Origin: an uncultured bacterium
Lineage (GTDB): Bacteria > Cyanobacteriota > Vampirovibrionia > Gastranaerophilales > Gastranaerophilaceae
Direction of reading: 5' to 3'
DNA length: 64,000 nt
Assembly: GCA_958366705.1 (NCBI GenBank)
Contig: CATXCB010000003.1
Coordinates: 16,193 to 80,192 of the forward strand
Part shown: positions 5,776-35,791 of the stretch, piece after piece
Numbering within the stretch: position 1 is the first letter of the stretch
Layout: each line of letters opens with the position of its first letter
The notes under the pieces: generated by a model
What the model saw: only the letters and a program-made list of their open reading frames with translations
Databases searched by the model: none
Told to the model about the DNA's origin: nothing
Position numbers and translations under genes: made by a program

Positions 5776-5881
5776 TAGATAATATTTCAATATAACCCTT
5801 CGAAAATCTTCGGAGGGTTTTTAGTATATTAAGTTCTTTTAATCAATTTACAAATCTAAGATTATGAGTTAAAATAATGAC

Positions 5882-7352: not shown

Positions 7353-7549
7353 TTTTTAGTTTTTTACTGAAAGTTAATATTCCTCTATAACTGTTGACAT
7401 TTGGCTGTGCTTGATGTTTGATAGTATTGTACTAGTCGAAATTTTCGTGCTGGATTTGACGGTTAGTACGTATGTAAAGTCGAGACGCGACGCCCAAGCT
7501 CTCAATAGGACTTAAGTAGGGCAAATTGGTAAAATTAAAAGGAGAAATT

Positions 7550-7936
7550 ATGCCAACAATTAACCAGCTTGTACGTTCTGAACGTGTAAAGCTAAAATCA
7601 AAAACTAAATCTCCTGCTTTGATGAATTGTCCTCAAAGACGTGGAGTTTGTACAAGGGTTTATACTACTACCCCTAAAAAACCAAACTCAGCACTTAGAA
7701 AAGTTGCCAGAGTTAGATTGACTAACGGATTTGAAGTTTCTTCATATATCCCGGGTATTGGACACAACCTGCAAGAACACAGTGTTGTTCTTATCCGTGG
7801 CGGTCGTGTTAAAGATTTACCTGGTGTTCGTTATCACATCGTTCGTGGTACTTTAGATACTGCAGGTGTTGCTAACAGAGCTAAAAGTAGATCTAAATAC
7901 GGTGCTAAAAGAGATAAAAAGGGAGGTAAGAAGTAA
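7550..7936 (+). CDS. rpsL: 30S ribosomal protein S12
   Basis: MPTINQLVR...[21 protein letters not shown] aaaggag lies 8 nt upstream of ATG 7550. The track ORF begins upstream at 7526. Confidence 0.95.
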
Positions 7937-20268: not shown

Positions 20269-20355
20269 GCTCCAGTGGCGGAATCGGTAGACGCGTTGGA
20301 CTTAAAATCCAATTGGGCGTATAACCCAGTGCCAGTTCAAGTCTGGCCTGGAGCA
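20269..20355 (+). tRNA. tRNA-Leu (anticodon TAA)
   Basis: 7-bp acceptor stem gctccag/ctggagc, D-arm ggcggaatcggtagacgc, anticodon loop ct-TAA-aa, long variable arm and T-arm gttcaagtc. No encoded CCA. Confidence 0.85.
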
Positions 20356-20409: not shown

Positions 20410-21192
20410 TTATAAGTATTTAAATATATTGTATCCTTTGTCTAATGATTTTTTAGTTTCTTCATCCGGTTCAAAATTTTTATTATTATCAAAGTAGAAT
20501 TGACAATGATTAGAAAAGCTAATTTCAGCAGGAATAATGAACGATGAAGTAATTACACAATTTTTTTCTAATAGGTTACAACTTTTTTCTGGTGAGTATT
20601 TATTAAAAGTTATATGATATATATCTACATTTTGTCCATTAGATTTTATTTTAAAATTCACACTAGACCCGTCAACATTTACATCTTTGAAGTGTTTTGC
20701 AAAATCTTCTGCAATTTGTATTTCTGTTGTAGTGGTAGTGAGATTAACCTTGTGAAATTCTTTTTTTAATTTAGAATACGCTGTTGCGCATTGTGTGTTT
20801 TTGATAAAGTCAGCAGGATTATCAGGTGATTTCTGCGCGAATCTAACAATTGTCATTAATATGACTATAGGAAATAATATATTTATTGTAATAGCAAATA
20901 GTCCCCAGGCAGCCTGTTTTTTCCTAAAATCTTTTGGTGCCATCCACCAATCATTTTGATATGCCCACATATTACCTTTAAATCCACAATAGAATTGTAA
21001 TATGGTAAAAAGTATCCAATTTAATCCAAAAGGTAATTGAAACCAGATTAGAGGAATTGCTAAAAGTGTAATCCAGGCCTTATTAGGAATTCCCCAGAAA
21101 AAAGTCAAAAGAAAAGCACCCCAGTTGAATTCATTTAATTCTTTAGGGATGTTTTTTCCTTTATAACCTGTAAAAAATTCTTTCACGCTCAT
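20410..21192 (-). CDS. hypothetical membrane protein (last gene of the glycan operon)
   Basis: 260 aa. Trp-rich N-terminal TM helices, then a soluble domain. Confidence 0.4.
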   Translation of the reverse strand: MSVKEFFTGYKGKNIPKELNEFNWGAFLLTFFWGIPNKAWITLLAIPLIWFQLPFGLNWILFTILQFYCGFKGNMWAYQNDWWMAPKDFRKKQAAWGLFAITINILFPIVILMTIVRFAQKSPDNPADFIKNTQCATAYSKLKKEFHKVNLTTTTTEIQIAEDFAKHFKDVNVDGSSVNFKIKSNGQNVDIYHITFNKYSPEKSCNLLEKNCVITSSFIIPAEISFSNHCQFYFDNNKNFEPDEETKKSLDKGYNIFKYL

Positions 21193-21233
21193 TGTTATAT
21201 TTTAGAATTTAATATCCAATATGTCAATTTGTG

Positions 21234-23546
21234 TTAATAATTTAGACTTTTGAGTTCTTTCATTTTAGCACTTAACTTTCTATATTTGGTTTTATAGTGT
21301 TCTCTGCGTTTTTTGTTAAATATAAGTTTTTTAAATATTCCACATTTTAAATATTCCACATATAGTTTGTTCTTGTTGTTTACAAGAATAATTCTGCGGG
21401 TATTTTCTGCAGTTTCAGTATTAAGTCTATCCATTTGAGCAAAGAAAAGATTGTCTTCGTTAGAAAATTCTTTGCTAATTTTAGGGGCTTCAATCGCGTT
21501 AAGTAACCAGGTTTTAGAACGTTCAAGTTCTGAATTTAATTTTTCAAATCTGTTTGTATAATCAATTTTCTTTAATAAGTCTTCTCTTGAATATATTTCA
21601 TTTGCTCTTTGTAATTGTCTGCTTTGCATATCTACGGTTTCCAACAAAGTATCAAGTCTTGTATCATTTTCTCCCGTTCTTGGAGAGATAACTAGAAAAT
21701 TCTTTTGGAACATTAATGCAAAACAGGTTCCATGGAACGAATCGCCTATATAGTATTCACAGTTTTTGATATAATATAACCAATCTTCAACAGGGAGTTT
21801 ACCTTTCATATCAACGGGTTTTAAACCTAATTTATCTGCAACAAAATTTATTGCTTTTTTCTTTTCCGGCGTCATAGTTATTATATAATATGCCAAAAAT
21901 TTAGATTCTTTTTTTGATGACGTTTCAGCTATTTTTTCGTATTTACTTCTATCTATGTAGAATACAGGATCCCATATCTGCGTACTTGTCAGATTAAATG
22001 TGTTTTTAAGGATATCAACTCCGCTATTTTCTCTTACTGATAATGCATCAAAACGCTGCAGGTATTTTTGCATAATTGTTTTGTTGGTTTCAGAGCCATC
22101 ATATGATGGTATTCCAAAACTTGCTGAACAAGATATTTTCTTTGAGGTATCATCGGCAAAGTTTAAAAAGTATTTATCTCTATGGTGTTCAACACACCAA
22201 TCCCTAAACACCTGATCTGAACCTACAAGAAATGTTCTAATATCATTGTTCAAATTCTTTAAATCTATATAATCCTGGCAAAAACTTGTAGTCTCTAGGT
22301 ATTCTTTTTCAAATTTTTCACTAATACTATTTTTGTGAAGTTTTTTTTCTATTCTAGGATAATAATTAATTGTTTTTGGATTGTATCCATTTTCTTTTAG
22401 AAATTCGTTTATTGCATAATTTGTTAAGATTGCCCCTCTGTTCGGTACATACCAGAAGTTCATAATTCCAATATTATTTTCTTTTCCTATAGTTTTTTCA
22501 TATGCAGTGGTGAAAGAATTTGTTTCTAAGAGTTTGTAAAATTTATTTCTTAATCTATGAGCTTTAAACGGTTTTTCACAAGCTCTTTGTCTTGCATATT
22601 TTAAAGGAACTTCTTTCAATCGTTTAATTGATGGTTTTATATTGGACAATATCATTTCACCTTTAGGTGTATTTATCATATAAATTGAAGTTCCTAATTT
22701 ATCATCAAGCTTTCTATCAAATTTTTTTATTCCCCAGAAATCTGCAAGTGTTATATCACTTTGACGTGGTAGTGTAGCATATTTGCATTGTTCACAGGTT
22801 TCACTCATTGCAAGTTTTGAGTGATACACTTTCATATATTTATTATCTTTAAATTTTTTATTATTTTTTGTTATTACAACAGAGGAGCAGCTCCAGCCTG
22901 CTAGCTCTTTATCTCTAAAATTGATATTATCAATATCTCCAGCCATTTCATCAATGTATTTTTTATATACTTTTTGAGACGGGGCATACGTACAGTAAAT
23001 ATCTACAAGTATAAGTTTTTCATAATCTTTTTGTAAAAAATGCTTTAGACCTGCCACCTGACAAGGACAACCTGAAAATAAAACGTATGTATCTTTTTCA
23101 AGTAGTTCTTTTATGTTTTTAAAAAGATTTTCTGAAATTTTACTTTGAACATATTTTGAACCTTTTAATTTATTTAAATCATTTTGGTTGTTAATGATAA
23201 TGTGTTCAACGTCAAAATTATTATTAAATGCTGCGCCTGCTACATAACCATTTTGAGCTAAAACCCATTCCGCAATTAAGCTGAAAGCTCCACCGGAGGC
23301 ACATTGTTTTCTGAGTTCATCTTTTGCAATAATCGCGTATGTTTTGGGTTCTTTATATTTTGTTTCTGTGTAATTTAAAGATGGACATGTTTTTTTACAT
23401 AATCCACAATTGGTACACTTATTTTGGTCAATATGTGGTCTGTAAAATCCATTTTTATCTTGAATTATTGAAATAGCATTGTGCGGGCAAATATTTGCGC
23501 ATGCTGCACAACCCGTACATTGATTATTCTCTGTTATTTGTTCCAT
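21234..23546 (-). CDS. fusion: 2x[4Fe-4S] ferredoxin + coenzyme F420 hydrogenase/dehydrogenase beta-subunit-like domain + polysaccharide pyruvyl transferase domain
   Basis: N-terminal CTGCAACANICP and CTNCGLCKKTCP motifs, an FrhB/FpoF-like middle domain, and a C-terminal half containing the LVGSDQVF pyruvyl-transferase-type motif. 770 aa. Confidence 0.6.
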   Translation of the reverse strand: MEQITENNQCTGCAACANICPHNAISIIQDKNGFYRPHIDQNKCTNCGLCKKTCPSLNYTETKYKEPKTYAIIAKDELRKQCASGGAFSLIAEWVLAQNGYVAGAAFNNNFDVEHIIINNQNDLNKLKGSKYVQSKISENLFKNIKELLEKDTYVLFSGCPCQVAGLKHFLQKDYEKLILVDIYCTYAPSQKVYKKYIDEMAGDIDNINFRDKELAGWSCSSVVITKNNKKFKDNKYMKVYHSKLAMSETCEQCKYATLPRQSDITLADFWGIKKFDRKLDDKLGTSIYMINTPKGEMILSNIKPSIKRLKEVPLKYARQRACEKPFKAHRLRNKFYKLLETNSFTTAYEKTIGKENNIGIMNFWYVPNRGAILTNYAINEFLKENGYNPKTINYYPRIEKKLHKNSISEKFEKEYLETTSFCQDYIDLKNLNNDIRTFLVGSDQVFRDWCVEHHRDKYFLNFADDTSKKISCSASFGIPSYDGSETNKTIMQKYLQRFDALSVRENSGVDILKNTFNLTSTQIWDPVFYIDRSKYEKIAETSSKKESKFLAYYIITMTPEKKKAINFVADKLGLKPVDMKGKLPVEDWLYYIKNCEYYIGDSFHGTCFALMFQKNFLVISPRTGENDTRLDTLLETVDMQSRQLQRANEIYSREDLLKKIDYTNRFEKLNSELERSKTWLLNAIEAPKISKEFSNEDNLFFAQMDRLNTETAENTRRIILVNNKNKLYVEYLKCGIFKKLIFNKKRREHYKTKYRKLSAKMKELKSLNY

Positions 23547-24649
23547 ATTTTAAATTCCTTTTTTTCTGATAGTTTTTTTATTATGTTGTCAATAGTTTTG
23601 CTTTCATCATCTACGACAAGTTCTAAAAATTTCTTTTTAAACATATTATTAATCGAGCTAACTTCAAACATTGTGTCTTCAAATGTTTTATCCTTTCTAC
23701 GTTTGAAGCACCTGTTGATTTCTTCAATTTGTGCCTCTTCTGTTATTGTTATGAATCTCATTGATTTTGGATATAGAACTATTTGATTTTTTGCACCCAT
23801 GATTGTGATTATGTCTGTAAATCCAGATCTTAACGTTATATTTGTGTGGCATAGCGTGGCAAAATAACTTTCCTCAAATAATGGCAAAAATACTTTTTCA
23901 AAATTTTCAAATTGTTTTCTCTTTGTATTAAAAATAACTTTATATCCAATGTCTTCTAATTTAGAGGTTAAATTTGTCCAAAATTCAATACTTATTTCTT
24001 TTGAATCATATGAATGAGCATCTGGAGTTATGAGTATAACTTTTTTATCCTCAGAAATGTTTTTGTACAATTCTTCAACTTTATCTTTTACAATTTCTGG
24101 GACAACTGGTGTTTCCGGTATCGGGTCAGTAAGTTTAAACATTTTAGCGTATAATTCAAAAAAATTGGTAACATTAAGAGTTTCGACTTCTTTAAATACG
24201 TGATGAGACATTTCATAAAGATGTCCTTTAGTTAAACCATGTTTATTATGTTCACTGAATCCTTTATTTGTGCATAGTGCATAATAAAATTCAGGACATA
24301 CTTTTAGTGTTTCGTCTGCAAATTTAAATGTGTTTATGAATTGCAGCTGGGTATCTCCAGCGTAAAGTATTAGTATCTTGCCTCCATTTTGTCTTTTGAA
24401 TTCATCAAGTAACGCGCAGCACATCAAAAAATCACCCCAGGGCCAAAATGTTGAGAATATCCAGTAATCTGGATATTTGTTTTCAAGTTCTTGTATAAAT
24501 AAATTTAATGCGGGTGGAATAAACTTAGCATTAGCTTTTTTTCTTAGAGCTAGCCTAAGAGATCTTGAAAACGGAATTAAATTTATTAGTGATTTTGTTA
24601 TTTTAAGTTTTTTTAAACTATTATATTGCTGCATTTTATACTTTCTCAT
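23534..24649 (-). CDS. hypothetical protein, GT9-like (heptosyltransferase-fold) glycosyltransferase candidate; paralog of 28109..29242
   Basis: C-terminal ITLRSGFTDIITIMGAKNQIVLYP resembles the GT9 vDtGlsHLaAAl..P.i.lyGP motif. Shares the (S/T)(T/P)DA...(I/L)(S/T)LRSG(L/F) pattern with the 377-aa neighbour. Confidence 0.35.
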   Translation of the reverse strand: MRKYKMQQYNSLKKLKITKSLINLIPFSRSLRLALRKKANAKFIPPALNLFIQELENKYPDYWIFSTFWPWGDFLMCCALLDEFKRQNGGKILILYAGDTQLQFINTFKFADETLKVCPEFYYALCTNKGFSEHNKHGLTKGHLYEMSHHVFKEVETLNVTNFFELYAKMFKLTDPIPETPVVPEIVKDKVEELYKNISEDKKVILITPDAHSYDSKEISIEFWTNLTSKLEDIGYKVIFNTKRKQFENFEKVFLPLFEESYFATLCHTNITLRSGFTDIITIMGAKNQIVLYPKSMRFITITEEAQIEEINRCFKRRKDKTFEDTMFEVSSINNMFKKKFLELVVDDESKTIDNIIKKLSEKKEFKIWNK

Positions 24650-25301
24650 ATTTTAATTCTTTAAACTTTTTTATTGCTTCTTTATATGTTCTATCTTTCC
24701 TGAATAATGTTGCGGTGCCAAGAATATAACCTTTTACACCCAGAGTAGACCACTTTTCAATTCTTTCCGGTGTTACAGCTCCGTCCAGTACAATATCAAA
24801 ATTATATTCTTCTCTTAATTTAAGGAGTTTTTCTATTTTTTTATCAACGTAATCTAAATACTGTCTGCCTGCGTGCCCTGGATTTACTCCAAGCACAAGA
24901 ACCCTATCTACAGTATTTAATAATTCTTCAATACTTGGGATTGAAGTCCCGGGATTAATCGCAATTCCTGCTATTGCTCCAGCTCTATGTATTTTTTCAA
25001 TCGTAGTGGCAGGATCACTGTCTACTTCCGGATGAATGTAGATAATATCTATACCCAATTTGAATAGGATATCTAAATAGTTATAAGGTTTTCTTACCAT
25101 TAGATGTGCATCTACTTTTTTAGTTGTTGCTTTTTTTATAAATGCCATATCTTGGTAACCCATACCAAAGTTATCAACAAAACTTCCATCCATAATATCA
25201 ATATGAAAAGAATCTATGCCTGCTTGTTCCAGCTCATAAACTTCTTTTTCAAGATTTGCATAATTCGCGCACATCATTGATGCAGAAAGTTCAATATCCA
25301 T
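24636..25301 (-). CDS. ribulose-phosphate 3-epimerase family protein (Rpe / allulose-6-P epimerase-like)
   Basis: SMMCANYANL, HIDIMDGSFV, DAHLMV and VNPGHAG align with the Rpe motifs. Confidence 0.75.
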   Translation of the reverse strand: MDIELSASMMCANYANLEKEVYELEQAGIDSFHIDIMDGSFVDNFGMGYQDMAFIKKATTKKVDAHLMVRKPYNYLDILFKLGIDIIYIHPEVDSDPATTIEKIHRAGAIAGIAINPGTSIPSIEELLNTVDRVLVLGVNPGHAGRQYLDYVDKKIEKLLKLREEYNFDIVLDGAVTPERIEKWSTLGVKGYILGTATLFRKDRTYKEAIKKFKELKYEKV

Positions 25302-26206
25302 TATTTCTCCTCCTTTATGACAGGTCTTGCTATTATAAAGTTTGATTTGTTCAATTTAATTCCTTCATTTGGTTCAATAATGATTGTGGTGCCTGTTTGA
25401 ATTTTGCAATTTTCTATAATTGTTTCACCGTTTAATACTGTTAGACATTCCAGAGTATTACTATTATTTTTGTATTCGGTTGTATCCTCATATAGTTTGG
25501 TAGAATACAAACGTTCTATAATTTCTTCTCCATTATATTTTCTAGTTTTAGATTTAAGTTTAGTATTAATGGCTTTAAGTGCTTTATCTATATGCAGTTC
25601 CCTTTTATTACCATTTTTATCTTTCCTGTTAAAATCAAAAAATCTGTAAGTTAGGTTGCAGTTTTCTTCAATTTCATAGAATAAAGCTCCATGTGTTGCA
25701 GCATGCATTGTTCCTTGTTCGACAAAAACATAGTCATTTTCACCTATCTGTAGATGATCGATGACGTCTTCTTCTACGCGGTTCTCATTAATTTTTTGTT
25801 CAATTTCTTCAATTGTAGATACTCTGCATCCATTAAATAGCCATCTATTTGTTGGTGGTTCTATAAAGTACCATGATTCGTTTTTCCCAAATGGGCGATT
25901 CTCTATTTCTTGAGCACACTTATCATCTGGATGAACCTGAATACTTAAATCTTCCTTTGGATCGACTAGTGCAATGACAAATGGGAAACTCTCAAATTTG
26001 GCTAAACCGAATTTCGCTTTATTCTCTTGAAAATATTCTTTAAATTTTCGATTTTTATATTCACCGTTTATGATTTCACTTTCGAATTCACCGTTGGAAA
26101 CCAGTGAATATAAATGACCTAGTTTATCATGGCTTTCCGGTGCAAATGGAACCAATTTGGTACCGCCCCATATTGTTTCGTGTGAAACAGGTTTTAATAT
26201 ATGCAT
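25301..26206 (-). CDS. class I mannose-6-phosphate isomerase (Bacillus ManA/Pmi type, cupin)
   Basis: LKPVSHETIWGG and QVHPDD motifs. 301 aa. Confidence 0.75.
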   Translation of the reverse strand: MHILKPVSHETIWGGTKLVPFAPESHDKLGHLYSLVSNGEFESEIINGEYKNRKFKEYFQENKAKFGLAKFESFPFVIALVDPKEDLSIQVHPDDKCAQEIENRPFGKNESWYFIEPPTNRWLFNGCRVSTIEEIEQKINENRVEEDVIDHLQIGENDYVFVEQGTMHAATHGALFYEIEENCNLTYRFFDFNRKDKNGNKRELHIDKALKAINTKLKSKTRKYNGEEIIERLYSTKLYEDTTEYKNNSNTLECLTVLNGETIIENCKIQTGTTIIIEPNEGIKLNKSNFIIARPVIKEEK

Positions 26207-26215
26207 AATTTCTCC

Positions 26216-26602
26216 CTATAATGTTTTGTCAATAATTACTTCCAATGATGCTAAACCTTCATTTCTGTTAGGACTTACTGCGTATGCACACTTTAGACCC
26301 GATGGTTTATTATCATTGAGAAGTATTCTTTCACCCATTGGCATTTCAAAAAGTAGTTCATTATATCTGATATTGTGCTTTTTTAAAAATGCTTCGGTTT
26401 TTTCTCGGGCTTGTTTTTCCCTAGCTGTCATAATCAAGATAAAATCATCACCAGGTAAAGACTGTAGAAATTCTTTAGCTCCAGGTAAAAATTTATCTTC
26501 TCCTGTTTTGTATCCGTTATGTTCAACAAGAGTTCCGTCAAAATCAAATATCCATGTCTTACTTAGAGAGGATAGTCTCAAAGTATTCTCTTTTAAAAGC
26601 AT
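26216..26602 (-). CDS. HAD-superfamily phosphatase-like small protein
   Basis: FDFDGTL motif I. 128 aa. Overlaps the 5' neighbour by 44 nt. Confidence 0.5.
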   Translation of the reverse strand: MLLKENTLRLSSLSKTWIFDFDGTLVEHNGYKTGEDKFLPGAKEFLQSLPGDDFILIMTAREKQAREKTEAFLKKHNIRYNELLFEMPMGERILLNDNKPSGLKCAYAVSPNRNEGLASLEVIIDKTL

Positions 26603-28112
26603 TATTTTCTCCTTCTATGCATTCATTTAGCAAATACAATCCGTTATAGTATGCAACACACATTGAATCAAAATCCTCCCAAGCATGGCTTGCCAGTGAC
26701 AACCAGATTATTGAATGTATAATTTTGATTTCTTTAAGGTTACAATTTGGGATTTTTGACAGGAAGTAAGCTGTCATTGATTCCCAGCCGCCTGATTTTA
26801 TTGCGTATTCAACGCCATCATCGGTTATATCCAGTTTGAAATTCTTTATATTAAACTGGTCAAAGTTTCCCTGGATTGAATAGTATAATTTTGCCCAGTC
26901 ATATCGAATATCACCAAGTACCTGCTGGCTGCCAAAGTAGCCGCGAGCATCAATAAAGTAGATTTTACCGTTTTTATCTATCATTGTATTTGTTAGTGTG
27001 CAATCACCGTGTATCGGGCAGTATGTTGTATTAAACAGATTTTGCTCTACTATTCTTTTCAGCAGACTAGGGCAAGTGATAATATTTTTACATCTTTTGC
27101 CGTTTATCATAATGTAGTCATCATTTGAAAATGGTATTGCCTGTCTGATACTTTGTATTCTTGAAATTGTCTTTTTGTAGTATTCTTCTTCCAAATCCCA
27201 GTAATTTTTTTCTGCTGTTTCATAACTATGCAGTTTTGTTACACTTGTTATTAAACTATCTATAACCTTTGTTTTTTCGGCTATATTTAGTTTTGTATTG
27301 AAGATATTTGTTCCATTAATTTTACTCATTGTCAGCGGGTTGAGTGAATATATTTCAGGAATCGAATCAAAACCATATTCTGTCATTTTTTTATACCATA
27401 CAACCTCTCTGTCAATAAGTTTTTCTCCCTCTTTTGTTAGTCCGGACTTAATTACTTTATCTTTTGTAAATTCCATTTTGTTATACGGTCTACAGCGATT
27501 TTCTGTTGTTGATAATTTGTTTATTGCTTCAAGTGTACCTACTTCTTTTGAATTTGAAAGCGATATAGCATTCAAGGTTATATTTGAGTTTTTCAACCAA
27601 GTTGTAAATGAACCTGTTTCCGGAAAATCTTTAAAATAACTTTTGTTATTAAAAATATAGCATCCGGCAACACCGTATTCGGTTGATGGAAATTTTTCAA
27701 GTTTTCCGTTTTTAAAACTCCAGCTGCATTTGAAATTTCCTGATAAACCAATATAGCATTTAGATGAATCTAATTTTGATAAATCGAATTCCTCACTAAG
27801 CAATAAATCCGACCATATAAGCATAAATTGCTCATTATCAGGAATAAATTCAAGTGCTTGTTTTATTCCACAGGCATTCCCTTTACCCTCTGATTTTACA
27901 AGTATGTATTTTGCTTTTGCAAAGGTTTGCAGGTAATTTTCAAGTACTTTAAATTTGTAGTCTCCAATTATCACGAATTCTGCATCCGGAAATTTTTTGA
28001 ACATGTGAAATATTATAGGTAGATTATTAACCGGCACAATACATTTTGGTTTATTATGCGTAAGGTGTTCAAGTCTTGTTCCTTTTCCTCCTGCTTGAAT
28101 AACTATTTTCAT
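26559..28112 (-). CDS. bifunctional sugar-/alcohol-phosphate nucleotidyltransferase (N-terminal) + APH/choline-kinase-fold kinase (C-terminal)
   Basis: N-terminal MKIVIQAGGKGTRL nucleotidyltransferase signature. C-terminal HGDCTLTNTMI...IDARG (HGDxxxxN Brenner motif). The arrangement is LicC-LicA-like or MurU-AmgK-like. Confidence 0.6.
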   Translation of the reverse strand: MKIVIQAGGKGTRLEHLTHNKPKCIVPVNNLPIIFHMFKKFPDAEFVIIGDYKFKVLENYLQTFAKAKYILVKSEGKGNACGIKQALEFIPDNEQFMLIWSDLLLSEEFDLSKLDSSKCYIGLSGNFKCSWSFKNGKLEKFPSTEYGVAGCYIFNNKSYFKDFPETGSFTTWLKNSNITLNAISLSNSKEVGTLEAINKLSTTENRCRPYNKMEFTKDKVIKSGLTKEGEKLIDREVVWYKKMTEYGFDSIPEIYSLNPLTMSKINGTNIFNTKLNIAEKTKVIDSLITSVTKLHSYETAEKNYWDLEEEYYKKTISRIQSIRQAIPFSNDDYIMINGKRCKNIITCPSLLKRIVEQNLFNTTYCPIHGDCTLTNTMIDKNGKIYFIDARGYFGSQQVLGDIRYDWAKLYYSIQGNFDQFNIKNFKLDITDDGVEYAIKSGGWESMTAYFLSKIPNCNLKEIKIIHSIIWLSLASHAWEDFDSMCVAYYNGLYLLNECIEGENNAFKREYFETILSK

Positions 28113-29242
28113 TTTATTTTAGCCCTCATATTTACTGTATCTTTTATCCATTCAATAATTTTGTCTTCAGATTCTTTTGAATATTCAAGTTCAAAAATGT
28201 TTTTTCTGTTTGGGTCAATTGCTTTGAGTGAAAAACCTTTTGAAACTTTCATTTCTGATATGACATCAAACCTGTATCTTTCTTTAAAATTTGTATAAAG
28301 AATTATTTGTAAATTGTTTATACCCGACAGAATCTCAGATAAACCACTTCTCAAACTGATAATTGCCAACGCTTTGTGTGCAATAGCATATGCCTCTTCC
28401 AGTGTCATATCTTTTGAATTTCTAATAATTTTTATATTTAATTCTTTTTCAAGTTTATCCCAGAATTTTTTGTCAATATTTTCGCAGGTGGTTGCATCAG
28501 TTGATAAAAATACAAATTTTTTTATGTTATTTTTTTGTAAATAATCTCTTGTTCTTTTTTTTAATTCTTGAGATATTTTTACATTATTTGAGTTGGAGAT
28601 ATTCTTTTTAGAAATATTAAAAAAGTTGTATATTTCAGACATATAATGGCAATGCCCGTTTCTTATTTTTTCTTCAGTATTGGTATAGAATTTCATTGGG
28701 AATGCTACATACACATATTGTTCTCCAACCAACATAACTTTATTATTGATTTCGTAATGAAGATTTGTTGTATAGATTCTATCAATATTTGGGGTAAGCA
28801 TATTGATAAGATTTAGATGATATTTTTTTGTCGCAATTATCAGTGGTACATCAGATTTTAAGATTAGATTATTTAATATGAATTTAAGAAAAAGATATGC
28901 TTCTCCTAAATTGGATTTTAGAATAAATATTTTATTGTATTTAGGATTTACAATTTTCTTTAAGATTTTTTTTGTTTCTTCTTCCTTGCCTGTTATTCTT
29001 TTAAATGTGTTTAAAACTTTAAGCTCTATTATATCAAGATTTTCTATTCGCTCTAAAAGTGGCAAATTAAATAATTTAGTAATCCTATATTCTGTATAAT
29101 TTTCATATTTTTTTGTCTTTGACAGTATTCTGAGTATAGTTTTATATTTATAATTATAGCTTTTTGTAATAGTACAAACTGGTATACCAAATATTTGGTA
29201 TATTTCTTCTTTTTGTTTTTTTATTTTTTTTATAATACTCAT
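28109..29242 (-). CDS. hypothetical protein, GT9-like glycosyltransferase candidate; paralog of 23534..24649
   Basis: FLSTDATT...AIISLRSGLSEILSGINNLQIILYTN pattern. Confidence 0.35.
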   Translation of the reverse strand: MSIIKKIKKQKEEIYQIFGIPVCTITKSYNYKYKTILRILSKTKKYENYTEYRITKLFNLPLLERIENLDIIELKVLNTFKRITGKEEETKKILKKIVNPKYNKIFILKSNLGEAYLFLKFILNNLILKSDVPLIIATKKYHLNLINMLTPNIDRIYTTNLHYEINNKVMLVGEQYVYVAFPMKFYTNTEEKIRNGHCHYMSEIYNFFNISKKNISNSNNVKISQELKKRTRDYLQKNNIKKFVFLSTDATTCENIDKKFWDKLEKELNIKIIRNSKDMTLEEAYAIAHKALAIISLRSGLSEILSGINNLQIILYTNFKERYRFDVISEMKVSKGFSLKAIDPNRKNIFELEYSKESEDKIIEWIKDTVNMRAKIK

Positions 29243-29258
29243 TTAACTGTTCCTGCTT

Positions 29259-31043
29259 TTAAAGCTCTATTAAATCCTGTTTTTTAAATTGTGCATCATA
29301 TAAAGATTTGTACGCGCCATTTTCTATATGAAGCAATTCATCATGTGTTCCTTGTTCAACAATATGTCCTTTATTAACTACAATAATTTTGTCGGCATTT
29401 TTTATTGTTGACAACCTGTGCGCTATAACAAAAACAGTTTTATCTTTCATTAAATTATCAATAGCTTTTTGTACGACGGCTTCAGCTTTATTATCCAGAG
29501 CACTTGTTGCTTCATCAAGAACAACTATAGGGGCATTTTTTATAAATGCACGTGCTATTGCAATCCTTTGCTTTTGGCCTCCTGATAGTCTGATTCCGCG
29601 TTCTCCGATTTGTGTATCAAGACCTTTTTCCAGACTTGCGATGAATTCATCTAAAAATGCCATTTTTACCGCTTGATTAATTTCTTCGTCAGTAGCATTT
29701 TCTTTTCCTAGTAGAATATTTTCTTTTATCGTACCTGAAAATAGGAAGTTATCCTGAAAAACAACTGCAATATTCTGGCGTAGTGAATGTAATTTGAATT
29801 TGTTGATATTAACACCGTCAAATAGAATTTCACCGCGTTCAATATTATAGAATCTAGGCAGCAGGTTAACTAATGTTGTTTTACCTCCGCCAGAATTACC
29901 GACAAATGCGGTTGTAGTGCCGGCTTTTACTTTAAAGTTGATATTCTCCAATACATCCGGCAGTTTTTTACCATAACTGAATGAGATATTTCTATATTCA
30001 ATTGAGTCATTTAGTCCATTCATTTCAATACTTTCAGGGGCATTCTGGATTCCAGGTTTTCTATTTAGCATACTGAATATTCTGTCTATAGCCATGAATG
30101 AAAACTGAACATCGTTCAAGTTATTACCTAAATTTTTAATAGGGGTATATAGCATAATCAATGCAGTAATAAATGATACAAAATTACCGCTGGTTATTGA
30201 TTTTGTTACGATTAAATGGCTTCCGTAGCCAATGGCTGCACCGATACCGATGGATACAATTATATGCATCATTGGGGATAGCCAGGATGTTCTTTGTGTA
30301 ATTTTAATTCGGAAATTGAAAATGTTATTGAGTACATTATTAAATTTATGCATTTGTACATTCTCAAGGTTAAATGAAGTAATGGTTTTATTTCCGGAAT
30401 AAGTTTCATTATATATTGTAATAATTTGCGAACCAGCAGCTACAGATTTATTCATTACTTCTTTTATTCGTTCACGAATTCTTGCCAGCGGTAGAAATGC
30501 ACAACCAAGTACTGTGATTGCAATTATTGAAAGCTGCCATGAATTATAGATTAAAACAGCAATCAATGAAATTGAAGAAAAAAGACGTGAAGTAAATGTT
30601 TTTAGATTTGCTAGTAATCCATTACATGCTAGGTCTGCATCTTTATTAAATCTGTAAATAATATCTCCGGATTTTCTTGCATCGAAGAATGAAGTTTCAT
30701 AGCTTAGCAATTTTCTGTATAAGTCTCGTTTTAGAGCATTTGTAATTTTACCGCCAACCCATGTATTTAGATATGTTGCCATGTAATTTAGAAATCCCTG
30801 TATACAGGTAAATAAAACAATTCCAAGTGGAATGTACCATGGTGATTGGATTGATTTATCAATCATTACGATGTCCATATAAGGTTTTAATGCAAGAGCT
30901 ATAACTGCATCTAATGCACCTATTGGTATACAAATTACTATTGCCATTAATGCTCTAAACCAATATGGTTTTATGTATGGCCACATACGTTGATAATTTT
31001 TGACAAACTCAATTTTTGCCACTTTTTTTTGAACTTTTTCCAT
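29259..31043 (-). CDS. ABC transporter, fused permease/ATPase (MsbA-like exporter)
   Basis: Six N-terminal TM helices. Walker A GNSGGGKTT, signature LSGGQKQRIAIARAF and Walker B VVLDEATSALD. Confidence 0.85.
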   Translation of the reverse strand: MEKVQKKVAKIEFVKNYQRMWPYIKPYWFRALMAIVICIPIGALDAVIALALKPYMDIVMIDKSIQSPWYIPLGIVLFTCIQGFLNYMATYLNTWVGGKITNALKRDLYRKLLSYETSFFDARKSGDIIYRFNKDADLACNGLLANLKTFTSRLFSSISLIAVLIYNSWQLSIIAITVLGCAFLPLARIRERIKEVMNKSVAAGSQIITIYNETYSGNKTITSFNLENVQMHKFNNVLNNIFNFRIKITQRTSWLSPMMHIIVSIGIGAAIGYGSHLIVTKSITSGNFVSFITALIMLYTPIKNLGNNLNDVQFSFMAIDRIFSMLNRKPGIQNAPESIEMNGLNDSIEYRNISFSYGKKLPDVLENINFKVKAGTTTAFVGNSGGGKTTLVNLLPRFYNIERGEILFDGVNINKFKLHSLRQNIAVVFQDNFLFSGTIKENILLGKENATDEEINQAVKMAFLDEFIASLEKGLDTQIGERGIRLSGGQKQRIAIARAFIKNAPIVVLDEATSALDNKAEAVVQKAIDNLMKDKTVFVIAHRLSTIKNADKIIVVNKGHIVEQGTHDELLHIENGAYKSLYDAQFKKQDLIEL

Positions 31044-31172
31044 TAAAATTTATCCCAATAATTATCTCTACTTAGAACAATTTTAATATGGTAAACTTTA
31101 AAATAGTCTTGTTGTATGGAAAAAATTAGCCATGCGGGTAATGTTTTGTTAATATAAGTTTACAATAATATT

Positions 31173-32186
31173 TTAGTTTATAGCTCTGTTAAATCCGCTC
31201 CAATCAAAGGTTTTAGAGCTAACTAAAGAGCTAATTTGTTCAATATTTTGATTTTTTAAGTTTTTAAACTCGTCTTTAAAATTATTTTTCATATCTATCA
31301 CCGGCAATTGAAATTCTTTTGCAATTTTTGCGACTTTTATGTCGTAGTTTATGGCTAAAATTTTACATTTAGCGAGAAGTCCAATAATTATTGCGTGAAA
31401 TCTCATTGCAATAAGATATTCTGATTTTGAAATTTTAGATATTATTTCTTCATTTGTTAAGTTTGAATAAATAGTTGTTTTCATGTCAGGATTGAGCAAA
31501 TTAACAGCTTTTTGAAATCTTTTGCATATTTCAAGGTCAATTGCGTCTTGAAATGAATATATTTCAAGATTTTTATCGGAAAATACGTTACACACCTGTT
31601 GTGCCAATCTGTCAATAAAATCTTCATTCATGGTTCTAAAATCTCTAAGTTGGACGGCAACAGTATTGGTTTTTGAAGAGAAATCCACATCAGTAGAAAA
31701 AATAGGATCGCACACCAAATCTGAATTTATGTTCCAGCTTTTTAAGAGGTCGTAGCTTTTTTCATCTCTGACACTGATATATGTACAGTGTTTAAGCAAT
31801 TGCTTTGTCAATATTTTCCCAGCCATGCTGTTAATTGGACCTATTCCCTGAGCAAAAATAATAACTTTTTTCCTTAGAAAAAGCCCGATAGCTATAACTA
31901 CAAGATAATATATAAGACTTTTTACACTTGTCACATCCTGTAATAAACTGCCTCCACCTGATATCAGAACATCAGATTTTGATATAGCGCCTATAATATT
32001 TCTAAAATTAAAAGTTTTTATACTTCTGATATGTTTATAATTTTTTAAAGTATATTGCGGATCAGATGATATAACAGTAACGCGATGTTTATCTTGCTGT
32101 AATTTGTTAACCAGTACAGATAAAATTGCTTCATCTCCGAAGTTTTTAAATCCAAAGTAACCTGATAAAACAAATCTTTTTTTCAT
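31173..32186 (-). CDS. polysaccharide pyruvyl transferase (CsaB/WcaK family)
   Basis: N-terminal FVLSGYFGFKNFGDEAIL and C-terminal MRFHAIIIG motifs. Confidence 0.7.
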   Translation of the reverse strand: MKKRFVLSGYFGFKNFGDEAILSVLVNKLQQDKHRVTVISSDPQYTLKNYKHIRSIKTFNFRNIIGAISKSDVLISGGGSLLQDVTSVKSLIYYLVVIAIGLFLRKKVIIFAQGIGPINSMAGKILTKQLLKHCTYISVRDEKSYDLLKSWNINSDLVCDPIFSTDVDFSSKTNTVAVQLRDFRTMNEDFIDRLAQQVCNVFSDKNLEIYSFQDAIDLEICKRFQKAVNLLNPDMKTTIYSNLTNEEIISKISKSEYLIAMRFHAIIIGLLAKCKILAINYDIKVAKIAKEFQLPVIDMKNNFKDEFKNLKNQNIEQISSLVSSKTFDWSGFNRAIN

Positions 32187-33133
32187 TAATACTCTCCGGT
32201 ATTATATATTTTATAAACTTCATCGTGGTAAGGTATTGATTTTATTGCTCCTATTCCCTGAGCTTGCAGACCTGCATCAATAGATGCTATTTTTGCAGCT
32301 TCAACAGGTGAATATCCTTTTGCTATAGAATGCAGAAATGCACCATTAAATGCATCACCTGAAGAGGTAGTATCAACAATGTTTTCTGTGTAGAAAGGTA
32401 TAAAGTTTAAATTTCCCTGATGCTTGACAAAATATCCTTTATCATGGCTTGATTTTATAACAATAATTTGAACTCCGTTATCCGCAAGATGTTTTATTAT
32501 GTTTTCAAGAGATTCAATGTCAAAGATACTTTTAGCGTCATACTTAGAGCTCATTAGTAATATATCAGTCAGGGGAAGTATCTCATCAAAAAATTCTTTT
32601 GCATCTTCTGATGTTGTAACAATAGCTGAGTAATTCGGGTCATATGCTGTTGTGACGCCATTGTTTTTAGCTATTTCAAAAGCTTTTTTTACTGCTTCAC
32701 GAGATTTCATCGATAAAGATTGTGTAACACCTGAGGCATAAACAATTTTTGAACTTCTTATATATTCTTCATCAATGTCATCTATTGATAACTGTGCAGG
32801 TGCAATCTTTTTTCTATAGTATTCAAATTCTTTATCATGAACAGATGTTCTAGAGACCATGTATAACCCGTTTTTTTCTTCAACAACTTTTACATGTTTG
32901 GTATCTAGTCCTTCTTTTTCCCAGCTGGAAAGCATGTATTCTTTAAAAGAATCGTTGCCCAGACAGGTGATAAATCCAACATTTGAATTTAGTCTTTTCG
33001 CTGCAACTGCTACAACTAAAGAGTCTCCTCCGTAATATTTGTGAAGACATTCTGCATCTTTGAGTTTTTGGTTTGTAGAAAATTCAATCAGACTTTCTCC
33101 GATTGTTATCAAGTCAAATTTGTTTTCTGGCAT
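32186..33133 (-). CDS. PfkB-family carbohydrate kinase (2-dehydro-3-deoxygluconokinase-like)
   Basis: DLITIGESLIEF and DTTSSGDAFNGAF (the PfkB DTxGAGD motif). Confidence 0.75.
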   Translation of the reverse strand: MPENKFDLITIGESLIEFSTNQKLKDAECLHKYYGGDSLVVAVAAKRLNSNVGFITCLGNDSFKEYMLSSWEKEGLDTKHVKVVEEKNGLYMVSRTSVHDKEFEYYRKKIAPAQLSIDDIDEEYIRSSKIVYASGVTQSLSMKSREAVKKAFEIAKNNGVTTAYDPNYSAIVTTSEDAKEFFDEILPLTDILLMSSKYDAKSIFDIESLENIIKHLADNGVQIIVIKSSHDKGYFVKHQGNLNFIPFYTENIVDTTSSGDAFNGAFLHSIAKGYSPVEAAKIASIDAGLQAQGIGAIKSIPYHDEVYKIYNTGEY

Positions 33134-33136
33134 AAT

Positions 33137-33736
33137 TTATCTTATTTGCTCCAATAAATTTTTTGCTCGTTTTGTGATTTCTGCATAAGAATCAGCATTA
33201 GTAAGATTTCTGCCAACTCCTACTGCAACCGCACCTGCTTTGATATATTCCGGTACTTCTTCTAATTTTACATTCCCTTGAGGAATAATATTCAAAAATG
33301 GCATTGGTCTAAGCAGATTTTCAATATACTCAACACCGCCCATAGCAGTAATAGGATATATTTTTACAAGAGGAATTCTTGATTTCCATGCTGTATATGC
33401 CTCGTTAGCTGTTGATGTCCCGGCAATAAAAGGCAAACGCTTGTCTTTAGATATTTTTAGCAAATTATGCTGAAATATTGGTGAAGATATAATCTTTGCA
33501 CCGGAGTCAATAGCTGCCTGAGCTTGAATTGATGTGATTATACCTCCGGCACATATTATTGCATCGTTAGATAATGCTTTAATTGCGTTAAATATGCTTG
33601 GAGTTTCCACATTAATCTCCATAATATTTAAGCCGCCGTCTATAAGCGCTTTTGCTGTATCTATTACTACTTGGGTATCTGCGCTTCTAATAATTGGCAA
33701 TACTTTGTTTTTTGAAAGTTCATCAATTAAATTCAT
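33137..33736 (-). CDS. KDPG/KHG aldolase family protein (Eda-like)
   Basis: LPIIRSADTQVVIDTAKALIDGGLNIMEI...GAKIISSP. 199 aa. Confidence 0.8.
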   Translation of the reverse strand: MNLIDELSKNKVLPIIRSADTQVVIDTAKALIDGGLNIMEINVETPSIFNAIKALSNDAIICAGGIITSIQAQAAIDSGAKIISSPIFQHNLLKISKDKRLPFIAGTSTANEAYTAWKSRIPLVKIYPITAMGGVEYIENLLRPMPFLNIIPQGNVKLEEVPEYIKAGAVAVGVGRNLTNADSYAEITKRAKNLLEQIR

Positions 33737-33802
33737 TTTAATATCTATCCTTTTTTTTGAATTTATTATATCATAAAATAAAACTTTGACCGGGGGAGTA
33801 TT

Positions 33803-35791
33803 ATGAAAAAATTAAAAAACAAGTTCTTTTATATAAATTCTTGTTTCTTATACATAGCATTAATATTTGTATTTTTTATATTTACAATAATGTTTGTGGA
33901 ACAATATGCTACGAGTTTTTTGGTTTCAAAATTTGCTGCTAATAAAGCTGTTTCTCCTGATATTGTTGAAATTGTTGTTGATGAAACTTCTATGCGGGAA
34001 TATAAATGGCCATGGGCGCGCGAACTTTACACTGATATGCTGGATTATTTTCATAGTTATGCAAAGCCAAAAGTTGTTGGGTTTGACATGATTGTAACCT
34101 CTTTTGATAGTTCAAAACCGGAAGATATTGATTTTGCAAAGCAGATTTCAAAAATGGATAATTTTGTATACGGATTTGTTCCGGAAACTGTTGATAATCC
34201 ATCAAAAAATCCTTTTTTAACTAAATTTAAAGACAGGCATTCTTTGAAATTAAGTGCTAGTCAAGAGCAGTTATCTACAGCGTATAATTCTTTTGTTAAT
34301 CCTCCCGGTGAGCTTTTTGATGCTGTCAAAAATTTTGGATCTCTTATGTTAGAGGGCGCAAATGGTTCAGGTTATATTTTTTCTACTGTCAGTACCCTAA
34401 AAATAGGTGATTCATATTATCCGTCGCTTCCATTAAGGATGTACATGCTTTTTAACAATACAAATAAAGTTGTACTGGATAATGATTATATTATTTATCC
34501 GGAAACAGGATTGAAAATTCCATACATATATAATTCTGACGGTCTTTTGAAAACTTATTTAAGATATTATCCTAATTACGAGAAAGGTAATATTGTTACA
34601 GATTATTCTCATCAAAATATTTCAGCTTCGCGTATTGTGGATTCGTATAAGGCGCTAAAAGCCGGCATTACCCCTGTTACAAATCCTGATATGTATGATA
34701 TAAAGACTGGAAAATATATAAATCCGGAATTCTTTAAAGATAAAGCAGTTATTATAGGTGCTAATATATCCGGTCCGACAGCCGATGTTTTGAAATCTCC
34801 TATGTCAGACAGGCATCCGGGGGTTGATATTCAGGCATCAGCTCTTGATAATCTTTTTAATGCACATTTCTTAAAATTTGCAGGATTGGGAGTGAATTTC
34901 TTATCTTTTCTTATATTAGCATTAGTTGCTTTTATTTTTATATTGAGATTTCGCTTTTTTAGAGGAATATTGTCAATTATTGTTTTTGATATTGCATACC
35001 TTTTGTTGGTATTTTCTTGTGCTTCCAAAGGTTATATTATGAGTTATGCCGTTCCGCTTGTCAGCCAATTTGTTACTGCTATTTTTGCATATTCATTTAA
35101 ATTTATTTCAGAAAATAGAAATAAAGAAAAAATAAAACAAGCAATGGGTAAATATCTTTCTCAAGATGTTATGAAAAATGTAGTGAGAAATATTGATGAT
35201 TTGAAACTTGGAGGAAAAAGAGCCATTGTTACTGTTTTATTCTCGGATATTAGGGGATTTACCAGTTTAAGTGAAAAAATGTCTGCAGAGGAAGTTTCAA
35301 TGATATTAAATGAATATTTTGCGGAAATGGAACCAATTATTAGTAAATACAATGGTGTTATTAATAAATTTATTGGTGATGCAGTTATGGCAATATTTGG
35401 AGAGCCTATACAGGATATGAATCATGCTCAAAATGCTGTGAAGTGTGCCTATGAAATGCTAAAAAAAGTTGAATACCTTCGAGAAAAATGGTTATTTGAG
35501 GGTAAACCAAAGATTGAAATCGGTGTTGGTATAAATACAGGTGAAGTATTTATTGGAAATATCGGAACAGAAACACGTATGGAATATACTGTTATAGGAG
35601 ATACTGTTAATCTGGCAAGCAGAATTGAAAGCTATAATAAAGTGTATAAAACAAATTTACTTGTCAGCAGTTCAACTTACGCATCAATTGCGGATATCGC
35701 TGATGTTATAAAAATTTCGGAAGTTCAAATTCGTGGTAAGGCAAAGAAAATGAACATATATGAAGTACTGAGAATAGATAAAGACAGATAA
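33803..35791 (+). CDS. CHASE2-domain membrane sensor fused to class III adenylate/guanylate cyclase
   Basis: N-terminal TM helix, periplasmic CHASE2-like domain, 3 TM helices, then VTVLFSDIRGFTSL...FIGDAVMAIFG cyclase motifs. Confidence 0.8.
   Translation: MKKLKNKFFYINSCFLYIALIFVFFIFTIMFVEQYATSFLVSKFAANKAVSPDIVEIVVDETSMREYKWPWARELYTDMLDYFHSYAKPKVVGFDMIVTSFDSSKPEDIDFAKQISKMDNFVYGFVPETVDNPSKNPFLTKFKDRHSLKLSASQEQLSTAYNSFVNPPGELFDAVKNFGSLMLEGANGSGYIFSTVSTLKIGDSYYPSLPLRMYMLFNNTNKVVLDNDYIIYPETGLKIPYIYNSDGLLKTYLRYYPNYEKGNIVTDYSHQNISASRIVDSYKALKAGITPVTNPDMYDIKTGKYINPEFFKDKAVIIGANISGPTADVLKSPMSDRHPGVDIQASALDNLFNAHFLKFAGLGVNFLSFLILALVAFIFILRFRFFRGILSIIVFDIAYLLLVFSCASKGYIMSYAVPLVSQFVTAIFAYSFKFISENRNKEKIKQAMGKYLSQDVMKNVVRNIDDLKLGGKRAIVTVLFSDIRGFTSLSEKMSAEEVSMILNEYFAEMEPIISKYNGVINKFIGDAVMAIFGEPIQDMNHAQNAVKCAYEMLKKVEYLREKWLFEGKPKIEIGVGINTGEVFIGNIGTETRMEYTVIGDTVNLASRIESYNKVYKTNLLVSSSTYASIADIADVIKISEVQIRGKAKKMNIYEVLRIDKDR

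Follow-up and report, generated by a model that had tools for sequence, protein, structure and literature searches.

Homology of a gene cassette from a gut Gastranaerophilales genome to the phage AfhE/AfhF nucleotide-sugar module, with candidate sugar products

Analysis of a 64,000-nucleotide stretch of an uncultured member of the Gastranaerophilaceae (contig CATXCB010000003.1, positions 16,193 to 80,192; the whole stretch is hereafter called the window) led to a minus-strand cluster of twelve genes at 20410-33736, the central part of which quite likely encodes a bacterial version of the AfhE/AfhF pathway for nucleotide-sugar synthesis. This central cassette encodes a fused nucleotidyltransferase and APH-fold kinase (NT-kinase), a small HAD phosphatase, an isomerase resembling type I phosphomannose isomerase (PMI) and an Rpe-family epimerase, and is accompanied by two GT-B glycosyltransferase (GT) paralogues and an MsbA-like ATP-binding cassette (ABC) exporter. 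On balance, the explanation that we favor over all others is an AfhE/AfhF-type module that would produce a nucleoside diphosphate (NDP)-hexose from fructose-6-phosphate for transfer by the GT-B enzymes and export by the ABC protein. The hexose nature of the product is a more tentative part of this reading, for which we would put the chances slightly below even. If it is a hexose, the product would most likely be NDP-D-altrose or NDP-D-allose, while NDP-D-arabinofuranose is the main rival. A first-pass annotation, made from the sequence alone, had already proposed that the isomerase, epimerase, kinase, phosphatase and nucleotidyltransferase make up a nucleotide-sugar pathway with the logic of GDP/ADP-heptose synthesis but with other folds, and the AfhE/AfhF homology agrees with it. 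The pathway type is not without precedent, having been described in phages in 2025-2026. What sets the version of the window apart is its supply branch, its own GT-B family, probably its sugar, and a bacterial glycan as the presumed target.

The NT-kinase (g06; 26559-28112, 517 aa) contains the Pfam NTP_transferase domain (residues 4-109), and its residues 260-418 weakly match APH(3'). Its AlphaFold2 (AF2) model (predicted local distance difference test, pLDDT, 90) is divided into two domains near residues 202-207, and the closest structure to the N-terminal one (about residues 1-200) is MurU with a TM-score of 0.77; MurU is also the reported top structural match of the phage enzymes. Comparison of the fusion with 50,697 phage records by tBLASTn matched 376 of them with a coverage of 96-97%, at least 80% of the query being covered in 345. 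The NT-kinase gene of phage HY126 aligned with the window fusion over the full length (26% identity, 528 columns, E-value = 4e-38) and the kinase motifs HGD..N and FID.RGYFG are conserved between the two proteins. In Mosigvirus genomes the gene order is arabinose-5-phosphate isomerase (API), NT-kinase and a 128-aa HAD-like gene, and the NT-kinase region lies close to a thymidylate-synthase homologue that makes 5-hydroxy-dCMP. According to PMC13326640, which summarises He et al. (2026, Nat Chem Biol), AfhE of HY126 is both a D-arabinose-5-phosphate kinase, yielding arabinofuranose-1,5-bisphosphate, and a UDP-D-arabinose pyrophosphorylase, AfhF is an Mg-dependent bisphosphate phosphatase that yields arabinofuranose-1-phosphate, and the DNA of RB69 and DLP3 bears D-arabinofuranose (D-Araf). 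That the NT-kinase gene of HY126 is AfhE is presumed from its domain architecture and its place among the neighboring genes.

The NT-kinase is followed in the window by a capless HAD phosphatase (g07; 26216-26602, 128 aa) which has weak HAD matches and whose gene overlaps the 3' end of the NT-kinase gene. Both the order of the two genes and the size and position of the second are those of HY126. It is 52% identical to the phosphatase adjoining the NT-kinase of Synechococcus phage S-SRM01. We predict that it is the counterpart of AfhF and strips the distal phosphate of a sugar bisphosphate. When all 12 window proteins were searched by tBLASTn against three phage loci, counterparts were found for the NT-kinase and the HAD only, and no other phage protein encoded there is related to the two GT-B proteins. 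Compared with the phage UDP-D-Araf pathway as a whole (Escherichia coli phage HY126; RB69 gp52:53/gp51/gp55; Acinetobacter phage DLP3 gp82/81/83), the window has in common the single polypeptide of a MurU-like nucleotidyltransferase and an APH-fold kinase, the capless HAD of about 128 aa immediately downstream and, by analogy, the route from aldose phosphate to 1,n-bisphosphate, 1-phosphate and NDP-sugar. In contrast, it lacks a KpsF/GutQ-type isomerase and has a PMI-like cupin and an Rpe-family epimerase, four otherwise invariant NT-kinase residues are changed, its HAD is only remotely similar to those of T4-like phages, its GT9-like GT-B transferases are unrelated to the phage DNA arabinosyltransferases, and its target is presumably an envelope glycan and not DNA.

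Phage S-SRM01 itself (MW015081.1; our locus L084) carries a module of the bacterial type at 5402-7814, with a SIS isomerase, an NT-kinase 36% identical to that of the window and the HAD mentioned above. No thymidylate-synthase homologue adjoins this module; it is surrounded by genes for GDP-fucose synthesis, for fucosyltransferases and other GT2-type functions (GT2 genes) and for a methyltransferase, a gene context which suggests a phage-encoded modification of glycans and not of DNA.

The 517-aa fusion was aligned with related sequences, and this alignment served to retrieve 80 loci, in more than eight phyla, from collections that hold one genome per species. Each of the 12 window proteins was compared with these loci, and all neighboring open reading frames (ORFs) were clustered. 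The NT-kinase was present in 76 of them, the HAD in 65, the GT-B family of about 375 aa in 55 (84 copies), the PMI-like isomerase in 50 and the Rpe-like epimerase in 45. The order NT-kinase, HAD, PMI, Rpe is conserved in Melainabacteria, uncultured gut Alphaproteobacteria, Selenomonas, Akkermansia, Sutterella, Oxalobacter, Dakarella, Mailhella, Elusimicrobiota and several Firmicutes. Among these diverse carriers the NT-kinases are 46-78% identical, far above what vertical descent between such phyla would lead one to expect, and from these identities the cassette is judged to be horizontally mobile. We take the functional core to be the genes between 28112 and 24636 plus both GT-B paralogues and, probably, the ABC exporter. 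Five alphaproteobacterial loci (L030, L033, L035, L036 and L046, at about 13.4-18.5 kb) have an eight-gene module in common, made up of NT-kinase, HAD, PMI, Rpe, a hexapeptide acyltransferase, a 375-aa protein (cluster 8), a GT-B protein and an MsbA-like ABC protein. The cluster-8 protein, a neighbor in 13 loci with no Pfam family, proved unrelated to the GT family in an hhalign comparison (probability <1%) and is thus not a third paralogue.

The supply of the sugar phosphate divides the bacterial cassettes into two types. In 15 loci of Firmicutes and Fibrobacteria a 196-aa KpsF/GutQ-type SIS isomerase, which shares 34% identity with the isomerase of HY126 and 31% with its S-SRM01 counterpart, lies between the NT-kinase and the HAD, and PMI and Rpe are absent. 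All of the SIS-type loci come from metagenome-assembled genomes. No SIS gene was found in the window cluster, where the PMI-like and Rpe-like genes take its place. SIS and PMI+Rpe never occurred in the same locus, and a neighbor-joining tree of the NT-kinases cleanly separated SIS-linked and PMI/Rpe-linked sister clades, with the phages, all of them SIS-linked, as outgroups. From this tree we infer that the SIS isomerase is ancestral and was replaced once by PMI+Rpe. No locus pairs a SIS isomerase with an NT-kinase of the PMI/Rpe clade, and an Rpe-like gene accompanies 45 of the 50 PMI loci while SIS-type cassettes are always without one.

The PMI-like cupin isomerase (g08; 25301-26206, 301 aa) passes Pfam PF20511 (31.8 versus a cut-off of 22) and matches the Bacillus subtilis PMI 1QWR (E-value = 5.5e-37), with the HPDD, E-W-Y and GT-HA stretches, which we take to be the metal-ligand motifs of type I PMI, aligned and conserved. 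Its score against the manA equivalog TIGR00218 (64.3 bits) is under the cut-off of 116.2. The Rpe-family ketose-phosphate 3-epimerase (g09; 24636-25301, 221 aa) belongs to Pfam Ribul_P_3_epim and passes only the Rpe subfamily model NF004076 (167 versus a cut-off of 165). Its loop after beta-8 reads LGT-ATLF, against VGT-SGLF in Escherichia coli AlsE (T196-S197-G198) and AG--SAIF in E. coli Rpe, and its motif PGHAGR resembles PGFAGQ of AlsE. All 45 cassette epimerases have a loop of AlsE length or longer and the PGxAG motif. Chan et al. are said to have found in 2008 that the extra loop residue lengthens the pocket for hexulose-6-phosphates and that its deletion shifts the preference to ribulose-5-phosphate. 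The Rpe-like genes of several loci from Alphaproteobacteria and of one Akkermansia locus (L027, L029-L031, L033, L035-L037, L039, L046 and L048, mostly at about 12.8-13.5 kb) present the loop CGTASGMF, two residues longer than that of E. coli Rpe and one longer than that of AlsE, which might mean that the substrate is longer again, for instance a heptulose phosphate.

The NT-kinases differ in parallel. Positions R130, F210, Y417 and Y476 are invariant from the T4-like phages (at 26% identity) to the SIS clade of Firmicutes, whereas S130, Y210, F417 and H476 are fixed in the PMI/Rpe clade including the window, and F373-S374 of the catalytic loop are also changed in most of its members. The presence of Rpe in PMI loci only, the AlsE-length loop, an isomerase of a hexose-6-phosphate family and these four changed positions suggest, at the level of sequence, that the exchange of SIS for PMI+Rpe changed the substrate and did not merely restore the supply of arabinose-5-phosphate.

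The pathway that we propose on these grounds would begin with epimerization of a ketose phosphate at C3 by the Rpe-family enzyme, most likely of fructose-6-phosphate to D-allulose-6-phosphate. The PMI-like isomerase would then convert D-allulose-6-phosphate to an aldose 6-phosphate, which would be D-altrose-6-phosphate if the stereochemical course of PMI is kept, or alternatively D-allose-6-phosphate. Phosphorylation of C1 by the C-terminal APH-fold kinase would give a 1,6-bisphosphate, the 128-aa HAD would take off the distal phosphate, and the MurU-like N-terminal nucleotidyltransferase would form the NDP-sugar. At the cytoplasmic face, the two GT9-like GT-B paralogues may move the sugar onto a glycan that is lipid-linked or belongs to the envelope, and this glycan may be flipped by the MsbA-like ABC protein. 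D-Altrose has the configuration of D-arabinose at C2-C4 and is its hexose homologue, which would explain how an AfhE-like kinase/transferase could be kept along with the same GT family. A precedent for an AlsE-like enzyme that works in an anabolic direction from fructose-6-phosphate is AgmD of angustmycin synthesis (PMC8599513).

The strongest competing explanation keeps the same pathway and mechanism with NDP-D-arabinofuranose as the product, the Rpe-like enzyme giving ribulose-5-phosphate from xylulose-5-phosphate and the PMI-like enzyme acting as a non-orthologous arabinose-5-phosphate isomerase. We regard it as unlikely but serious. The sole biochemically characterized homologue, AfhE/AfhF, makes UDP-D-Araf, and the sister-clade SIS protein is related to the HY126 API at the identity given above. 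The same GT-B family is found with both cassette types, and by established stereochemistry arabinose-5-phosphate is to ribulose-5-phosphate as mannose-6-phosphate is to fructose-6-phosphate, with the same configuration at C2. The mutual exclusivity of SIS and PMI+Rpe is what functional substitutes would show, and it is equally expected if both just supply arabinose-5-phosphate. However, an additional Rpe should be needless for such a product, and yet it is present in most PMI loci and in none of the SIS cassettes; moreover, the epimerase loop has the hexulose-type length, the four positions invariant in all API-linked NT-kinases, phages included, are replaced in the PMI/Rpe clade, and SIS isomerases are never combined with NT-kinases of that clade.

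Several other observations weigh against a hexose product or against the AfhE/AfhF assignment. The epimerase lacks further marker residues of the AlsE clade (e.g., it has VNPG and not VDPG) and scores about equally on the Rpe and AlsE models (TIGR01163, 169.5 with a cut-off of 212.6; NF007266, 164.6 with a cut-off of 271). These two points and the fit of the exclusivity to simple substitution are why NDP-D-arabinofuranose is retained as a serious rival. The loop comparison rests on one Rpe and one AlsE reference sequence, and the hexulose meaning of the loop length is the one that Chan et al. reportedly gave it. The four clade-specific residues are known from the alignment. Direct BLAST of the window HAD against the HADs of HY126 and T4-like phages gave no similarity, and the hhalign match to the phage AfhF-like family is weak (E-value = 1.9e-4, probability 48%), although it spans the DxDxT, TAR and (I/L)(R/K)Y(N/H) motifs. 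Our literature search for bacterial AfhE homologues and for the context of arabinose-5-phosphate isomerases in Gram-positive bacteria gave nothing usable. Neither D-altrose nor D-allose is, to our knowledge, a component of bacterial glycans, and we know of no nucleotide-activated form of either sugar.

Concerning the transferases, the first-pass annotation had described two paralogues with a GT9 motif. Their paralogy is clear (hhalign probability 99.2%, E-value = 7.8e-20, 290 columns), and the check it had proposed, a structural comparison with GT9 members, gave for the 371-aa protein a GT-B fold with GT9 enzymes as top matches. The 371-aa protein (g10; 23534-24649) has a weak Pfam GT9 (PF01075) match covering only part of the model (24.5 bits versus a cut-off of 22). 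Its AF2 model (pLDDT 90.3, predicted TM-score 0.87) was matched best by Foldseek to a Veillonella protein (3TOV), WaaF (1PSW), TibC (4RAP) and WaaC (2H1H), with E-values of 2e-6 to 1e-4, TM-scores of 0.4-0.56 and identities of 12-13%. The 377-aa protein (g05; 28109-29242) matched no Pfam or NCBIfam family, GT9 included, and its assignment as a GT-B protein comes from its homology to the 371-aa one, which makes it a candidate transferase for the cassette sugar. When 1.84 billion representatives were searched with a profile of this GT-B family, 1,244 clusters (50% identity) were retrieved. PF01075 was matched by only five of 40 diverse members, and no other glycosyltransferase or sugar-related family was matched. 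The GT-B family is large, essentially unannotated and linked to both forms of the cassette, SIS and PMI/Rpe. No heptose pathway genes were found near the GT-B paralogues, whose family is instead associated with the AfhE-type cassette. Two tandem modules of the g05/g10 type make up several proteins of about 650-790 aa (L027:17897-20176, P0139, P0149, P0151 and P0178-P0183), so the family also exists as a duplicated fusion.

The ABC exporter (29259-31043, 594 aa) contains the ABC_membrane and ABC_tran domains and scores 543.8 bits against TIGR02203 (MsbA), under the cut-off of 602, being MsbA-like and not an assured orthologue. Genes 63-65% identical to it adjoin the GT in alphaproteobacterial loci. 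The export role put forward previously is supported by the presence of MsbA-like exporters with the cassette in some other phyla. Together, the GT-B paralogues and the co-transferred exporter suggest glycosylation of a lipid-linked acceptor in the cytoplasm followed by flipping. Against this, the same GT family is found in monoderm Firmicutes without an ABC gene.

The cassette can be compared with several other known sugar pathways. The synthesis of GDP/ADP-D-glycero-D-manno-heptose (GmhA, HddA/HldE, GmhB, HddC) follows the same chemical order of isomerase, C1 kinase, HAD phosphatase and nucleotidyltransferase, and also employs GT9-like GT-B transferases; an MsbA-type exporter likewise lies near the window cassette. 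Its folds differ from those of the window except for the nucleotidyltransferase and the HAD, with a cupin in place of SIS and an APH fold in place of GHMP/PfkB, and the window has an extra 3-epimerase and transferases only distantly identical, as given above, to the GT9 structures. Nothing points to the heptose or the keto-deoxy product that had been considered at first. With E. coli D-allose catabolism (AlsE, RpiB/AlsI) the window shares the one-residue-longer epimerase loop, but its epimerase is under the AlsE cut-off, its isomerase is PMI-like and not RpiB, and its context is NDP-sugar synthesis; angustmycin AgmD is an example of such an epimerase in anabolic use (PMC8599513). Finally, AmgK/MurU and NahK-type salvage pair an APH-fold sugar kinase with a MurU-like minimal nucleotidyltransferase in the same way, whereas in the window the pair is fused and coupled to a HAD and to a de novo supply of sugar phosphate, and its kinase would, by analogy with AfhE, act on a sugar phosphate and not on a free sugar.

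If this interpretation holds, the phage DNA-arabinosylation pathway is tied to a far larger bacterial family (more than 2,000 NT-kinase clusters in the first search), a second supply module exists that probably alters the sugar, and a function can be given to a large unannotated GT-B family. A new entry would also be added to the bacterial nucleotide sugars. The horizontal spread of the cassette in gut and rumen Melainabacteria, Alphaproteobacteria, Akkermansia, Sutterella, Oxalobacter, Selenomonas, Lachnospiraceae and others implies that its product may be a common, unrecognized surface antigen of the gut microbiota. As a broader and still more tentative proposal, to which we give somewhat less than an even chance, the PMI/Rpe clade would use fructose-6-phosphate for the de novo synthesis of an NDP-activated D-altrose or D-allose, perhaps in furanose form. 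The GT-B family would then attach this sugar to the envelopes of many bacteria of the human gut and the rumen, spread over at least eight phyla, which would turn it into a surface epitope typical of the gut and disseminated by horizontal transfer. In that case the UDP-arabinose synthesis of phages would be an evolutionary offshoot or the source of the module. Several carriers have been cultured, among them Dakarella massiliensis ND3, Selenomonas ruminantium and Lachnospiraceae AC3007 with cassettes of the PMI/Rpe type and Butyrivibrio sp. AE3004 with an NT-kinase homologue, which makes the hypothesis directly testable.

A second alternative, and an improbable one, is that all 12 genes form one operon system for a pyruvylated, keto-deoxy or heptose-like sugar, with Eda and PfkB as feeding enzymes and the pyruvyl transferases as decorating ones, as the first-pass annotation had proposed. 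At the head of the cluster are a KDPG/KHG aldolase (2-keto-3-deoxy-6-phosphogluconate/2-keto-4-hydroxyglutarate; Eda-like, 33137-33736, 199 aa; Pfam Aldolase, E-value = 4.9e-34), a PfkB sugar kinase similar to 2-keto-3-deoxygluconate (KDG) kinase (32186-33133, 315 aa; Pfam PfkB) and the polysaccharide pyruvyl transferase CsaB (31173-32186, 337 aa; TIGR03609, 271.4 bits versus a cut-off of 213.1). At its end are a fusion of two [4Fe-4S] modules, an FrhB-like domain and a polysaccharide pyruvyl transferase (21234-23546, 770 aa; Pfam Fer4, FrhB and PS_pyruv_trans) and a predicted membrane protein for which no Pfam or NCBIfam family was found (20410-21192, 260 aa). All twelve genes run in one direction and most of them overlap, a terminator scan showed no strong internal terminator, and about nine related Gastranaerophilales loci preserve the order Eda-PfkB-CsaB-(ABC)-GT-cassette. 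However, apart from a single Mailhella match for the pyruvyl-transferase fusion, the five genes just described are next to the cassette in about ten loci of close Gastranaerophilales and in none of the others. Beyond close relatives (NT-kinase identity below about 65%), Eda, PfkB, CsaB and the membrane protein are absent from about 70 loci. A 129-nt gap also separates CsaB from the ABC gene. We read this restricted distribution as synteny by descent and not as evidence of shared function; judged by gene content across the loci, the twelve genes are not one functional unit. The neighborhood comparison that had been suggested for related genomes upholds the synteny of NT-kinase, HAD, PMI, Rpe and GT-B, and does not extend it to Eda, PfkB, CsaB, the fusion and the membrane protein.

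The tightly coupled trio of Eda, PfkB and CsaB, the FrhB-pyruvyltransferase fusion and the membrane protein are accordingly treated as lineage-specific neighbors and not as demonstrable parts of the pathway. PfkB and Eda are probably catabolic, resembling as they do the pair of KDG kinase and KDPG aldolase, although the PfkB protein is under the cut-off of each of the KDG, KDGal and IolC kinase models. The start of CsaB overlaps the stop of PfkB and the gene is translationally coupled to PfkB and Eda. Members of the CsaB family usually pyruvylate a cell-wall polymer that contains N-acetylmannosamine (ManNAc), and a separate cell-wall function is probable for the CsaB of the window. A UDP-N-acetylglucosamine 2-epimerase gene is located 20 kb from CsaB, at 10416-11555 on the plus strand (Pfam Epimerase_2, E-value = 3e-104), and is a plausible supplier of ManNAc for a pyruvylated wall polymer. 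The equivalog score of CsaB, its coupling to PfkB and Eda and the nearby epimerase fit the usual role of the family. For the FrhB-pyruvyltransferase fusions our literature search on function returned nothing usable.

A last alternative, that the fusion is a LicC/LicA-like phosphocholine or MurU/AmgK-like recycling enzyme, or that PMI, Rpe and HAD are catabolic for allose or allulose and adjacent by chance, is very improbable: the N-terminal domain is structurally closest to MurU, LicC is a weak N-terminal sequence match (E-value = 1.5e-3) and the Rpe/AlsE and PMI families are usually catabolic, but the fusion is homologous to the presumed AfhE over its whole length, has sugar-phosphate enzymes as neighbors and lacks a Pfam Choline_kinase match, for which reasons the LicC/LicA and MurU/AmgK readings were rejected, the four genes are strictly co-ordered between phyla together with a dedicated GT family, and Pfam and NCBIfam searches of the cluster revealed no sugar transporter, allose kinase or regulator.

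The window is AT-rich, with a G+C content of about 30-33%. Its NT-kinase gene is 98% identical to that of the human-gut metagenome-assembled genome MGYG-HGUT-00385, and the nearest named relatives are Candidatus Gastranaerophilales (Melainabacteria). All twelve ORFs of the first-pass annotation were confirmed, and each of its domain calls was supported by Pfam and NCBIfam; the same gene set was obtained from independent gene calls on two other assemblies. The stops and starts mostly overlap or abut, apart from gaps of 129 nt between CsaB and the ABC gene (31044-31172), 41 nt before the last gene (21193-21233) and 16 nt after the ABC gene (29243-29258). Just past the last gene the cluster is bordered by tRNA-Leu(taa) at 20269-20355 on the plus strand, detected by ARAGORN and Rfam; at gathering thresholds, Rfam found only two tRNAs in the window. 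Scans of 20.2-34.0 kb yielded 79 promoter-like sites against 76 expected from shuffles and seven terminator-like sites against 5.3 expected, with no enrichment of either. As noted at first, no Wzx, Wzy, GT2 or GT4 gene is visible among the flanking ORFs scanned (ORFs beyond 54.6 kb and several small ones lie outside the scan), which encode housekeeping functions.

Minor observations were also made around the cluster. Several ORFs of 80-157 aa run antisense to the cluster genes in 23481-33776 (e.g., 26157-26630 on the plus strand); they overlap well-supported genes and are taken to be by-products of the AT-rich sequence. Divergent from the cluster head, at 33803-35791 on the plus strand, a CHASE2 sensor is fused to an adenylate/guanylate cyclase domain, and this position is kept in related Gastranaerophilales contigs. 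Two radical-SAM proteins with the N-terminal domain Radical_SAM_N2 are encoded at 2250-3821 (minus strand) and 38562-41087 (plus strand); the second is fused to DUF2344 and directly followed by an RNase E/G gene (41077-43056). An ORF of 697 aa at 13072-15165 (plus strand), with no Pfam family at E ≤ 1e-4, lies upstream of the glucose-6-phosphate isomerase (PGI) gene (15289-16680). Finally, the genes at 47724-49568 (plus strand), 50347-51333 (minus strand), 51330-52700 (minus strand) and 52806-54575 (plus strand) form a cell-wall remodelling neighborhood, which contains two Amidase_3 proteins (one with an AMIN domain), a DUF3326 protein, a protein of the Asp/Glu racemase family and a class B penicillin-binding protein.

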